DNA from: a virus | Lineage: Duplodnaviria; Heunggongvirae; Uroviricota; Caudoviricetes | Direction: 5' to 3' (one strand) | IMG/VR virus record: IMGVR_UViG_3300045988_087472 | Span: 1-31,536 of that record | DNA length: 31,536 nt | Translations under genes and position numbers: made by a program | Part shown: one piece after another, positions 1,447 to 5,691 of the stretch | How positions within the stretch are numbered: position 1 is the stretch's first letter | Layout of the letters: the number at the start of each line of letters is the position of its first letter | The notes under the pieces: generated by a model | What the model saw: only the letters and a program-made list of their open reading frames with translations | What the model was told of the DNA's origin: nothing | Databases searched by the model: none

Positions 1447-1809
1447 TTAACGACCTGCTGCGCGGAGTTTTCCGTCAGGTTCACCGGCAAGAGTCAGTAA
1501 CTGTCCCTGGTCTTCCTGCAGAATAGTCAGGCGACCACCGCGATTGACATACATCGGCGTTTCGGTGGTGTCTTCTTCGGAAATTTTCCCGCGGTTAGTC
1601 GGGCGAACATATGAGAGTTTGTGTTTGATTTTCACACGGTTCTCATCAAATGGTTCGATTTCCAGGTTGAGTGAGACCTTACCTTTGGTTTTCGTGTTCA
1701 TCACACCGGAAGCGACTTCACTGAGAACTGCGCCGATTTTGGTTTCAAATACGCCGCCGTCCAGCTCCCCGATAAATGCCTGCACATCAGTACTGCGTTC
1801 GCTAGCCAT
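1447..1809 (-). CDS. Hypothetical early phage protein, YfdP-like (120 aa)
   Basis: The track ORF 1447..2127 is trimmed to the internal ATG at 1809..1807, which has a strong SD (GAGGAG, 7-nt spacer); the upstream extension lies in a structured non-coding-looking region. Confidence 0.65.
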   Translation of the reverse strand: MASERSTDVQAFIGELDGGVFETKIGAVLSEVASGVMNTKTKGKVSLNLEIEPFDENRVKIKHKLSYVRPTNRGKISEEDTTETPMYVNRGGRLTILQEDQGQLLTLAGEPDGKLRAAGR

Positions 1810-1857
1810 TTTGCTGCTCCTCATCATATCGACCCTGCAAGGTCGGTTAGTTTCTCC

Positions 1858-1946
1858 ACAAAACAGAGAAGAACACCTGCGGTGGCAGCCGCCCGGATGG
1901 ATTGGGTTATGAGCCCGTCGTCCGGTGATGCTCTTCTCTGTTTTGT
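1858..1946. repeat. 15-bp perfect inverted repeat (ACAAAACAGAGAAGA 1858-1872 / TCTTCTCTGTTTTGT 1932-1946) enclosing a 59-nt GC-rich loop; part of a larger structured region 1850-2110
   Basis: Read directly; a second 8-bp inverted repeat GGTACCAG/CTGGTACC lies at 1956-1963/1983-1990; overlapping ORFs have no credible starts. Confidence 0.7.
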
Positions 1947-2247
1947 AAAAAGGACGGTACCAGCCGGAAGCAAGGGTACAAACTGGTACCGCCAGGACTA
2001 CACACAGCATAAAGTTGTGGTGCCGGGTGCCTCCCGGTGCCTGGCGAAGGTTGCACACCAGACGGGTGGGTATCCACAGAAGGTCGACTGTCAGCCTCAA
2101 CCTTAACCCGCGTGCGCTGAGCCGCATTCACCACAACGCTAAGGATTCTCTCTGGTTGAAAATACTTAGCTGTTATGTGCCTGTCTTTTCACCACTTCAG
2201 GCTCGGTGGTATCCTTTTAAGCCCGTATACATAAAAGGAAAATCAAA

Positions 2248-2394
2248 TGACTTTTGATGAAAAAGAACTTGATAATGCAATTAATAAAATCATCGTAACG
2301 TCGCTCTTTTCCTGTCTCAGCGACACTCAGCAGAAACAGTTCTACGAATCGGCTTTCAACATGATCGAGCGTTGTTGTTTCTGCGATGCCGACT
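2248..2394 (+). CDS. Small hypothetical protein (48 aa), AT-rich
   Basis: Manual translation MTFDEKELDNAINKIIVTSLFSCLSDTQQKQFYESAFNMIERCCFCDAD; SD AAGGA 7 nt upstream; below the ORF-track length cutoff. Confidence 0.4.
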
Positions 2395-2409
2395 AGTTAC
2401 CTGAAAAAA

Positions 2410-2685
2410 TCAGGAAACAGTTGGCTGATGCTCTTCGAGTGCGACTTTCTGACCAATTTTCTGAAATGTGCTCTCCGAATTTGGACAAATAGAAAAAGGC
2501 CATTTCCATTCAGGGTCTGATGGAAATACTTCAGCCTGTTCCAAAGCACGGCGTAAAGAGAACACAACTCCAGCCATAATCTGATGTTTCCCATTGGCCC
2601 AGCTATCGCCGCTCTGATCTACATGGGCGGCTATGTCGTATGACCAAACGACTTCACCACTATTGTTTAAAATCTGGACTTTCAT
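2410..2685 (-). CDS. Hypothetical protein (91 aa; alternative start at 2706 gives 98 aa), immediately downstream of the repressor on the same strand
   Basis: ORF 2410..2706 in track; internal ATG at 2685 has an AGGTG SD-like sequence, the 2706 ATG has none; acidic, Trp-rich; no recognised domain. Confidence 0.5.
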   Translation of the reverse strand: MKVQILNNSGEVVWSYDIAAHVDQSGDSWANGKHQIMAGVVFSLRRALEQAEVFPSDPEWKWPFSICPNSESTFQKIGQKVALEEHQPTVS

Positions 2686-2813
2686 TTCATACACCTGCTT
2701 TAACATGAGTGCCTAGTGGCACAACATGACTCAACGAATCATCCTGGACTTCATATGCCCCAGGCGGCTACTTCGTGGGCGTCCTGCCTGTTCGTTATTT
2801 TTGATATAAAATC

Positions 2814-2880
2814 TAACTTAACTTAGTTATTATGGCAAGAGAAAACACCAAACTTTTCTTAGTTCGGTGCCTTAGTTAGA
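2814..2880. promoter_or_regulatory. Cluster of CTTAGTT repeats (2822-2828, 2858-2864, 2871-2877) downstream of the repressor gene; candidate OL-like operator/promoter region
   Basis: Three direct copies of a 7-mer within 60 bp, matching copies in the cI-cro intergenic region. Confidence 0.35.
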
Positions 2881-2891
2881 GAAGAGAGGTC

Positions 2892-3518
2892 TTAGAGTTC
2901 GTATTGAACTCCTTTGACTACACCAATGATAAGGCAATTACCATTGATAGGGATGTTGGGATACCGAGGATTTAATGGCACTAAAAACTTTTGAGGGCCA
3001 TCGATGACTAATTTTTTTACTGTAGCTTCGTTTGTTCCATCAAGTCGAGCGATGACTATTTTTCCATGACGAGGTTCTGCATCTGGATCTACAATCACTG
3101 TTGCGCCTTCTGGTATTGTTGGGAGGCCATTAGGGTTAGTCATGGAGTCACCTTTAACCTCTAATGCAAATGAGTTATCACCAATCTTTAATGATGTATC
3201 TACCCACTTGTCCACTTCACTAAACACTTCTGCTGCCCTGCACTCAGTAAACTGCCCAGCCTGAACCCACGATATTACAGGAACTCTGCGCATGTTTGTG
3301 ACGAGTTTGCCTTCAAACTCAGCACCATAAAGAATGTAATCTATTGACGTATTGAAGAACTTCGCTAATTTCGAAAGTGCCTCCCCACCAGGGGTATTGA
3401 TGTCTTTCTCCCAGTACCCCACAGCAACGTCGCTTACTCCACAAAATTTACCCAATTCTTTCTGGGACGTTCCGGTAACTCTTCTCAGAGCTTTTATACG
3501 CTGACCAACCGTTTCCAT
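2892..3518 (-). CDS. CI-type prophage repressor, XRE-HTH N-terminal domain plus S24 (LexA-like) autopeptidase domain (208 aa)
   Basis: N-terminal HTH (QKELGKFCGVSDVAVGYWE); C-terminal VKGDSM serine motif and downstream VKKLV lysine of the S24 Ser-Lys dyad; divergent from a Cro-like gene. Confidence 0.9.
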   Translation of the reverse strand: METVGQRIKALRRVTGTSQKELGKFCGVSDVAVGYWEKDINTPGGEALSKLAKFFNTSIDYILYGAEFEGKLVTNMRRVPVISWVQAGQFTECRAAEVFSEVDKWVDTSLKIGDNSFALEVKGDSMTNPNGLPTIPEGATVIVDPDAEPRHGKIVIARLDGTNEATVKKLVIDGPQKFLVPLNPRYPNIPINGNCLIIGVVKGVQYEL

Positions 3519-3615
3519 AGGAGCACCATTTCTTGAATTGCTAAGTAATCTTAGTTTTTATTGACCAAAGATAGATTTGTAATTAGCATCTAATAAAACT
3601 TAGTTTGGAGGGCGT
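3519..3615. promoter_or_regulatory. Divergent cI/cro intergenic region with candidate operators and rightward promoter
   Basis: Palindrome CTAAGTAATCTTAG at 3541-3554; CTTAGTT at 3550-3556 and 3599-3605; -35-like TTGACC at 3561-3566 with weak -10 TAGCAT at 3584-3589. Confidence 0.5.
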
Positions 3616-3816
3616 ATGACAACTGACGATATCGAAAGCTACTTCGGCAGTATTGAGAAAGTTGCTGCTTTTTTCGGCATAACAACTGAAGCCGTTTATC
3701 AGTGGCGAAACCGTCCGGGCCAGTTAATTCCAAAAGGACGTGCAGCAGAAGCTGCATATAGAACTTGCGGACGGTTGCCATTTAAACCTGAGCTTTATGA
3801 AAAATCTAATGGATAA
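3616..3816 (+). CDS. Cro-like HTH transcriptional regulator (66 aa)
   Basis: Divergent to the repressor; HTH segment FFGITTEAVYQWRNRPGQLIP; SD GGAGGG upstream. Confidence 0.8.
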   Translation: MTTDDIESYFGSIEKVAAFFGITTEAVYQWRNRPGQLIPKGRAAEAAYRTCGRLPFKPELYEKSNG

Positions 3817-4749: not shown

Positions 4750-5691
4750 ATGAGCACTAAATTAACCGGCTATGTATGGGATGGTTGCGCTGCATCAGGC
4801 ATGAAATTATCCAGCGTGGCAATTATGGCCCGCCTGGCTGATTTCAGTAATGACGAAGGTGTGTGCTGGCCATCAATTGAAACTATTGCCCGTCAGATTG
4901 GCGCGGGGATGAGTACCGTCAGGACGGCTATCGCACGGCTGGAAGCAGAAGGCTGGTTAACGCGTAAGGCGCGTCGCCAGGGTAACCGCAATGCGTCGAA
5001 TGTTTATCAGCTTAACGTTGCGAAGCTTCAGGCAGCGGCATTTTCTCAACTGTCAGATTCTGACCCGTCAAAATCTGACGCATCAAAATCTGACCCGTCA
5101 AAATTTGATGCGTCGAAATCTGGCAAAAAAGCGGGTTTTCACCCGTCAGAATCTGGCGGGGATCCGTCAGTAAAATCAAAACATGATCCGTCAGATAAAA
5201 AACCTTCTCGTCCGGACGCTTCGCAACCGGACACGCAGACGGATGAACAGGATTTTTTAACTCGCCATCCTGATGCGGTTGTATTCAGCCCTAAAAAGCG
5301 CCAGTGGGGAACGCAGGATGATTTGACCTGCGCACAGTGGCTCTGGAAAAAAATCATCGCCCTGTACGAGCAAGCCGCCGAATGTGACGGCGAGGTGGTT
5401 CGTCCCAAAGAACCGAACTGGACAGCCTGGGCAAACGAAATTCGCCTGATGTGTGTGCAGGATGGTCGTACTCACAAACAAATCTGCGAGATGTACAGCC
5501 GCGTCAGCCGCGATCCGTTCTGGTGCCGTAACGTGCTCAGCCCGTCGAAGTTGCGGGAAAAATGGGATGAGCTTTCCCTGCGCTTATCGCCGTCCGTCAG
5601 CACGCACACAGAAAAACGCGAAGACCCGTACTTCAAAGCCAGTTACGACAATGTGGACTACAGCCAGATCCCGGCGGGATTCAGGGGGTGA
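4750..5691 (+). CDS. Phage replication initiation protein, O-like (N-terminal HTH domain, repeat-encoded linker, DnaT-like C-terminal region; 313 aa)
   Basis: N-terminal winged-helix segment CWPSIETIARQIGAGMSTVRTAIARLEAEGWL; internal DNA repeats; position after cII-like gene. Confidence 0.75.
   Translation: MSTKLTGYVWDGCAASGMKLSSVAIMARLADFSNDEGVCWPSIETIARQIGAGMSTVRTAIARLEAEGWLTRKARRQGNRNASNVYQLNVAKLQAAAFSQLSDSDPSKSDASKSDPSKFDASKSGKKAGFHPSESGGDPSVKSKHDPSDKKPSRPDASQPDTQTDEQDFLTRHPDAVVFSPKKRQWGTQDDLTCAQWLWKKIIALYEQAAECDGEVVRPKEPNWTAWANEIRLMCVQDGRTHKQICEMYSRVSRDPFWCRNVLSPSKLREKWDELSLRLSPSVSTHTEKREDPYFKASYDNVDYSQIPAGFRG
5053..5204. repeat. Iteron-like tandem 15-bp repeats (consensus TCARAATCTGACNCG, 5 tandem units at 5053-5127 plus degenerate copies to about 5200) followed by an A-rich tract; candidate phage replication origin inside the initiator gene
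   Basis: Repeats read directly; encode SDPSK/SDASK pentapeptide repeats in-frame. Confidence 0.5.

Follow-up and report, generated by a model that had tools for sequence, protein, structure and literature searches.

A conserved convergent gene pair in an exchangeable slot beside the repressor of an SfV/e14-like prophage: a candidate excludon-like accessory cassette

The window, that is the whole stretch of 31,536 nucleotides that was analysed (IMG/VR record IMGVR_UViG_3300045988_087472), can be identified from its gene content and similarity as an SfV/e14-like lambdoid prophage of E. coli/Shigella, and over positions 1800-2800 the Shigella phage SfV is 98.7% identical to it. Two small convergent genes, here called A (plus strand) and B (minus strand), lie beside the repressor gene, in the following surroundings.

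Left of the cassette, minus strand: homologs of YfdP and YfdQ (DUF2303)
1945 to 2167, minus strand: STnc100/PasD-like multi-branch RNA (Rfam RF02076, 41.2 bits with a gathering score of 47, E=1.5e-6)
1953 to 1993 (stem) and U-run, minus strand: predicted intrinsic terminator of the STnc100-like RNA, z -3.4 (RNA folds z -3.3 and -3.4)
2191 to 2210, unstranded: conserved hairpin ACCAC...GTGGT, left cassette border, directly upstream of A
2210 to 2732, unstranded: exchangeable cassette, with unrelated DNA at this place in phage vB_EcoM-689R6
2247 to 2396, plus strand: gene A, truncated allele, phrog_3311 family, 49 codons and TAG
2397 to 2492, plus strand: C-terminal remnant of gene A, 32 codons in frame 3' of the TAG, same as in the intact form
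2410 to 2685, minus strand: gene B, SfV orf33, phrog_3195, 91 aa (98 aa from an alternative ATG at 2706)
2709 to 2722, minus strand: palindrome GTGCC-TAGT-GGCAC, core of a hairpin in the 5' UTR, with the ATG of the 98-aa form inside the hairpin
2729 to 2797, minus strand: structured leader RNA, put-like candidate, at the start of the predicted PL transcript, 65-70 nt, conserved
2810 to 2838, minus strand: PL-like sigma-70 promoter TTGCCA-17-TAGATT, from a promoter search
2813 to 2826 and 2849 to 2862, unstranded: putative OL operators of the CTAAG-N4-CTTAG type (window motif matches)
2836 to 2873 (hairpin 2842 to 2873), minus strand: predicted intrinsic terminator after cI, 13-bp stem and U-run UUUUCUCUU, z -2.5
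2892 to 3518, minus strand: CI repressor (S24/HTH)
3541 to 3554 and 3590 to 3603, unstranded: putative OR operators matching OL (window motif matches)
3616 to 3816, plus strand: P22-Cro-like gene, with a CII-like gene also in the neighbourhood

Some other features of the neighbourhood may be mentioned here. The yfdP-like frame (window 1447-2127, minus strand) has no stop for 226 codons and extends upstream through the structured RNA, and the conserved gene start is at 1812. An inverted repeat with 25-nt arms that are 84% complementary and a 39-nt loop (1858-1882 and 1922-1946) is placed between the terminator of the STnc100-like RNA and this yfdP-like gene. Within a replication-initiator-like gene (4750-5691) the 15-nt repeat TCTGACCCGTCAAAA occurs four times at 5059-5122 and is origin-iteron-like in appearance; a mir-5880 match in Rfam at these positions was spurious and produced by the repeats.

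The preliminary description had placed a 48-aa ORF with a good Shine-Dalgarno sequence at 2248..2394. The ORF exists, about 1 nt away from these coordinates and with 49 codons (ATG at 2247, TAG at 2394-2396), and an AAGGAA is present at 2235-2240, 6-7 nt 5' of the ATG. It is also AT-rich as described, with 35-37% GC over 2150-2374 versus 45-59% in the flanks. Its length is, instead of the natural size of the gene, that of a nonsense allele, in which GAG>TAG at 2394 shortens an 81-aa protein to 49 aa; reading through the TAG gives exactly an 81-aa protein, identical to the intact form P0028 except for the stop. The homologs of A in E. coli have 81 aa and those in Klebsiella, Salmonella and Yersinia are slightly shorter (75-80 aa), and the phrog_3311 profile matches the A of the window over positions 1-49 of its 81 (E=2.9e-32). 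The TAG-bearing 57-mer has an exact match in only 4 of the 465 complete E. coli records that carry the 57-mer of that site, and the exact 49-aa product is present in 231 contigs of a large collection. Intact A together with intact B was found in all 80 IMG/VR loci examined, each with the 81-aa A, in a set that is biased towards this form. The TAG allele thereby offers a clean natural mutant for probing the role of A. The predicted structure of A is a three-helix bundle (pLDDT 82.5), for which a fold search gave no meaningful neighbour, and a CC-x-C motif is kept in most of the members but not in all. A genome-contig profile search with the A profile found nothing.

For gene B, the 91-aa and 98-aa forms noted earlier (2410..2685/2706) are both present in the list of ORFs. 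The phrog_3195 profile matches B over its full length (1-98 of 98, E=2e-67), and the SfV record has the 98-aa minus-strand ORF as orf33, annotated 'unknown'. The 91-aa form, starting at M8, is most likely the product, since every divergent B homolog has the N-terminus MKVQ, PGAP calls B as 91 aa, an AGGTG stands 5' of the 91-aa ATG, and the DNA upstream of M8 is entirely different in some contexts. The palindrome reported upstream of the minus-strand ORF is there, at 2709-2722 and not 2708-2721. It is the core of a hairpin of -14.2 kcal/mol (z -1.8) that would sequester the upstream ATG of the 98-aa form; variants of it occur in loci L001 and L022, and it is missing from L028- and L036-type contexts. 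The palindrome was also considered as an operator, which was rejected in favour of a 5'-UTR hairpin burying the upstream ATG. The structural model of B is of low confidence (pLDDT 59) and too poor to interpret. Two corrections of annotation follow for SfV, whose record lacks gene A and in which the start of B is probably M8.

Small ORFs are common by chance (6 kb contain 61 of 30 aa or more, the sizes of A and B alone being not above chance), and the reality of the two was therefore tested comparatively, on the module taken from four lineages with 64-77% DNA identity (the SfV type, Rac-like E. coli/Klebsiella, Salmonella and Yersinia). Substitutions among them fall on the third codon position of A from 2247 to about 2445 and on that of B between about 2495 and 2685, the two patterns mixing in the stretch that separates them, and the Nei-Gojobori estimates were as follows.

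Gene A, codons 1-66: pN 0.12-0.27, pS 0.55-0.79
Gene B, codons 1-64: pN 0.16-0.26, pS 0.50-0.86
Same DNA, antisense control frame: pN 0.21-0.42, pS 0.07-0.28

The resulting pN/pS of about 0.2-0.4 in the true frames of A and B, and above 1 in the antisense controls, is what purifying selection on both proteins predicts, and on this comparative evidence we take both ORFs to be real, conserved protein-coding genes. Within the SfV type, B has 14 nonsynonymous versus 7 synonymous polymorphisms, so that constraint over this short range looks weak. The ORFs overlap in antisense and in some lineages the B frame runs on to 122 codons, covering most of A, so one ORF might be thought a non-coding shadow of the other. 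This is hardly conceivable, as pN exceeds pS in the antisense control frames and each ORF has its own third-position zone together with a low pN/pS. The tail of B beyond about residue 84 alone is shadow-like, with an unconstrained look, a stop that varies in position (91 versus 122 codons) and a sequence that is not conserved and mirrors A.

The arrangement of the two genes is equally conserved. Intact A, with its end at 2492, overlaps the 3' end of B by 83 nt, and the ORF overlap is 120-160 nt in other lineages. The ORF ends had been described as lying within about 15 bp of each other, which is true for the window, where 13 nt (2397-2409) separate the stop codons, but not for the ancestral state with its 83-nt overlap; the small gap is specific to this allele because of the nonsense truncation of A. 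From the ATG of A to the ATG of B there are exactly 439 nt in all four lineages measured, without indels, and six lineages carry the convergent overlapping pair, the most divergent at about 40% identity. By tblastn, A and B were present, convergent and overlapping, in every locus retrieved via either protein. Absence of the small plus-strand ORF from syntenic relatives, which would have argued against it, is thus the opposite of what was found, A being conserved wherever B occurs, and the convergent module adjoining the repressor is functional-looking. A profile search of 1.84 billion representatives gave only 19 relatives of B. In the contigs of two of the most distant (42-44% identity) B lies directly after a CI-like repressor gene and an A homolog is antisense across the 3' end of B (E=8e-25 and 3e-10). 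Remnants with A only, or with just the 5' end of B, also exist. The 561-bp segment is present at 95-100% identity in 541 of the 5426 complete E. coli genomes (about 10%), and the carriers include O157:H7 and ETEC strains; the Sakai Sp1 prophage was checked and the cassette was absent.

The segment that carries the two genes can be exchanged for others. In vB_EcoM-689R6, with flanks 98-99.8% identical to the window and blastn HSP borders at 2209 and 2733, it is replaced by another convergent pair, phrog_5286 (plus) and phrog_1744 (minus); in SfII other DNA replaces 2214-2614, and a Yersinia prophage has two convergent pairs in tandem. Six loci, some of them with unrelated cassettes, have an invariant stem in the hairpin at 2191-2210, and this hairpin appears to mark the left recombination border of the slot. 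Non-homologous convergent pairs with overlapping 3' ends are found in the same slot in e14 (ymfI/ymfJ, L018 498-1085), Rac (sieB/ydaF, L100 2172-2812), 689R6 (L002 2479-3091) and Yersinia (L010 3034-3826), and suggest that the slot beside the repressor is a general cassette site. The pairs of 689R6, SfII, Yersinia, e14 and Rac showed no homology to A or B, and a relationship of A/B to YmfI/YmfJ of e14 was specifically considered and rejected, as there is no sequence similarity. For the alternative cassette proteins of 689R6, SfII, Yersinia and Salmonella no functional assignment was found. An RNA-seq-based list of convergent excludons includes both ymfI/ymfJ and sieB/ydaF (PMC12288877). On the PL side, ymfJ has late SOS induction with a log2 fold change of 4.05-4.83 and a detected protein, and the SOS rise of ymfI is only 1-2 (log2 fold change) (PMC11002266).

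Between the stop of cI (2892) and B lie the terminator, operators and promoter given above. The SfV annotation has a terminator at the equivalent place after cI, 4 of the 6 operator-type matches in the window flank cI, and operator-like sites elsewhere in the window are essentially confined to the cI-cro gap. The loci of SfV, Salmonella and Yersinia have stronger TTGACA promoters (TTGACA-N17) at the place of the PL-like one. The cassette occurs beside at least six immunity/PL types, each with a sigma-70 promoter, often a perfect TTGACA, that points into B, and homology between immunity types stops at about 2800, which is the predicted start of PL. By these features B is predicted to be the first gene of PL, in the position of N/nun, and to be early, repressed in the lysogen and not cotranscribed with cI.

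The predicted PL transcript would begin with the leader at 2729-2797, which shows 82-85% conservation in loci where the identity of the cassette is no more than about 65-70%. Its outer stem and second hairpin have compensatory changes in 7 of the 16 predicted pairs across five lineages, and G-U pairs favour the minus strand; a match in Rfam was not found. In a comparison by eye only, it has ACGAAC...CAGGAUGA motifs and their spacing in common with HK022 putL. The put family is reportedly the subject of a paper by King et al. from 2011. In HK022, putL is just downstream of PL, and nun follows PL and putL (PMC9378689). In a Yersinia prophage the leader (L010 3853-3918) flanks the A/B cassette on the opposite side. 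Downstream of the cassette, the same transcript would contain the STnc100-like RNA, which is also present in L002, L003 and L004. In related genomes PGAP has a 'frameshifted hypothetical protein' over this RNA, probably a mis-call, and the RNA may correspond to the ncRNA of the termination-based immunity of SfV. Roberts et al. (2007) may already assign a role to orf33 or the cassette region of SfV. There is also an 18-nt stretch of 78% complementarity between 2123-2140, in the 5' stem of the STnc100-like RNA, and 2368-2385, in the part of A encoding ERCCFCD, which may have arisen by chance or may represent an RNA target in the manner of P4 (seqA/seqB-like).

The preliminary description placed the minus-strand gene where lambda has rexA/rexB, and B might accordingly be a moron for exclusion or abortive infection that is expressed in the lysogen on the transcript of cI. 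B does share the strand of cI, from which it lies 206 nt downstream, the GC content is low across the 5' half of A, and the sieB of Rac is in the equivalent slot, oriented like A. However, with a terminator, OL and a PL-like promoter separating cI from B, the latter would not be a rex-like passenger of the cI transcript; the breakpoint between immunity types falls at the PL start, the e14 counterpart of B is SOS-induced and not lysogen-expressed, and searches gave no SieB, Rex or PADLOC match, so that we consider a cotranscribed moron very unlikely. A doubtful, though still plausible, alternative is a regulatory role of B, or of A and B together, in early-left transcription or in the choice between lysis and lysogeny, in one variant through a protein made first from PL that lets polymerase pass the STnc100-like terminator. 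The position of B, that of N/nun upstream of a strong intrinsic terminator (1953-1993), would fit such a role, as would the constant placing of B, even in distant homologs, directly after the repressor gene. Termination-based immunity has moreover been reported for SfV, plus a means of preventing it; PMC3475682 cites Roberts et al. 2007 (J Gen Virol 88:3187) for ncRNA-mediated superinfection immunity of SfV. On the other hand, B has no HTH or other match to a nucleic-acid-binding family and no arginine-rich motif (N-terminus MKVQILNNSGEVVWSYD), and the covarying put-like leader RNA could give antitermination without a protein. Unrelated cassettes in 689R6 and SfII also stand between a near-identical leader, STnc100-like RNA and terminator, and from this swapping the cassette would not be required for reading that terminator.

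A toxin-antitoxin-like or abortive-infection module had also been proposed. In such a system B would be a host-toxic early protein and A, acting as a protein or as a 3'-overlapping antisense mRNA like txpA/RatA and bsrG/SR4, would restrain leaky B in the lysogen. The obligate co-occurrence and fixed geometry of the genes, their convergent 3' overlap and the prophage location are all in line with this. Against it, the genes are convergent and do not form an operon, and there is no match to any toxin-antitoxin or defence model: in agreement with the earlier remark that neither protein belongs to a recognisable family, searches of Pfam, NCBIfam and PADLOC gave no significant match for A or B, PDB profile searches were empty, and phrog_3311 and phrog_3195 are both labelled 'unknown function'. 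B is not a small hydrophobic peptide (no hydrophobic stretch can be read from its 91 aa), and A is itself a conserved protein. The circulation of an allele with truncated A and intact B in as many as 231 contigs, and the remnants that retain A alone or only the 5' end of B, likewise speak against it, and we regard the toxin-antitoxin interpretation as unlikely.

The interpretation that we put forward, at about even chances, is that the A/B pair constitutes an excludon-like accessory cassette. The cassette would be a conserved, mobile two-gene unit heading the PL operon of SfV/e14/Rac-like lambdoid prophages. B, as the first ORF from PL, is expected to be silent in the lysogen and to be turned on upon repressor inactivation or infection. 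A, ancestrally of 81 aa (2247 to 2492), would be transcribed towards B (2685 to 2410), with coding regions that overlap tail to tail, such that the two transcription units would collide and the mRNAs would be complementary. A PL-driven state with B on and a PL-silent state with A on may then be mutually reinforcing, in which case A would serve as an accessory product of the prophage state, with B as its counterpart in early lytic growth. The analysis shows that both genes code for protein, that their pairing and geometry are conserved, that B lies behind PL, that the cassette can be exchanged and that A is cut short here by a nonsense mutation. In which direction and when A is expressed, how the interference would work and what the proteins may do is what we infer, for the mechanism by analogy.

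The conserved convergent pairing and the overlap at the level of ORFs argue for the excludon-like cassette, and so do the coding signal of both genes, the position of B after the terminator, operators and promoter, the flanks that are shared while the contents are swapped for other convergent pairs, and the analogy with the e14 and Rac pairs. Other observations point against it. The best promoter match for A, TTTTCA-18-TATCCT with its candidate -10 at 2214-2219, has 8 of 12 positions, spans the 2191-2210 hairpin and is not conserved in Yersinia, and the plus-strand hairpin at 2761-2786, a candidate end of the A transcript, is a poor terminator (z -0.1). The analogy is with non-homologous pairs, and the truncation of A is tolerated (231 contigs). 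A moron-like, lysogen-expressed role for A is possible; by the usual features of morons, it has a GC content of 35-37% over its 5' half, lies on an exchangeable segment and has the 8/12 promoter match, and a convincing plus-strand terminator was not found.

It is tempting to speculate further, and tentatively, that the head of PL in SfV/e14/Rac-like prophages is a dedicated slot for interchangeable convergent-pair cassettes, each encoding one protein for the lysogenic state and another, antagonistic to it, for the induced state, the two being reciprocally expressed. This broader proposal seems to us rather improbable; if true, each cassette might hold a factor that excludes other phages or modifies the host, together with the antidote to it, both locked by overlapping transcription. 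A/B would be the most tightly constrained example, with its fixed 439-nt geometry, its dual-coding overlap and its conservation down to about 40% identity, and its two products would interact directly. No place in the prophage is more sensitive to regulation than that of the cassette, whose two proteins are nevertheless complete unknowns, and the excludon-like cassette gives a model of a recurrent but unstudied trait of prophage immunity regions that can be put to the test.

The cassette can be compared with several known systems. Lambda RexAB lies between cI and OL/PL and is cotranscribed from PRM, whereas B lies beyond a terminator and PL. With lambda N and HK022 nun, B shares its place as the first PL ORF, preceded by a structured leader and followed by a terminator, but it differs from them in lacking the arginine-rich motif and any sequence similarity, and in being exchangeable between phages with identical flanks. 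Type II toxin-antitoxin systems have two co-directional genes in one operon, while A and B are convergent with overlapping 3' ends, and no type II fold or family was found for them; type I systems combine a small hydrophobic toxin with a non-coding antisense RNA, neither of which is seen in A/B.

Closer in arrangement is the ymfI/ymfJ pair of e14, in the same slot after the LexA-like repressor gene ymfK and before the early-left genes, where a plus-strand gene converges on the first PL-side gene with an ORF overlap of 63 nt; the proteins, of 113 and 102 aa, differ from A and B in belonging to other PHROG families. In Rac, sieB, whose annotation is superinfection exclusion, runs convergently towards ydaF/ydaG, the small genes that come first downstream of racR, with an ORF overlap of only 4 nt in the case of sieB/ydaF, and Rac-like prophages also house divergent copies of A/B. 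SieB, of about 160 aa, is usually regarded as a membrane-associated protein, whereas A is small, soluble-looking and helical and has no match to SieB in Pfam. In lambda, the OOP RNA is a convergent transcript over the 3' end of cII that exerts antisense control. OOP is, however, a short non-coding RNA, whereas here the antisense partner encodes a conserved protein of 81 aa.
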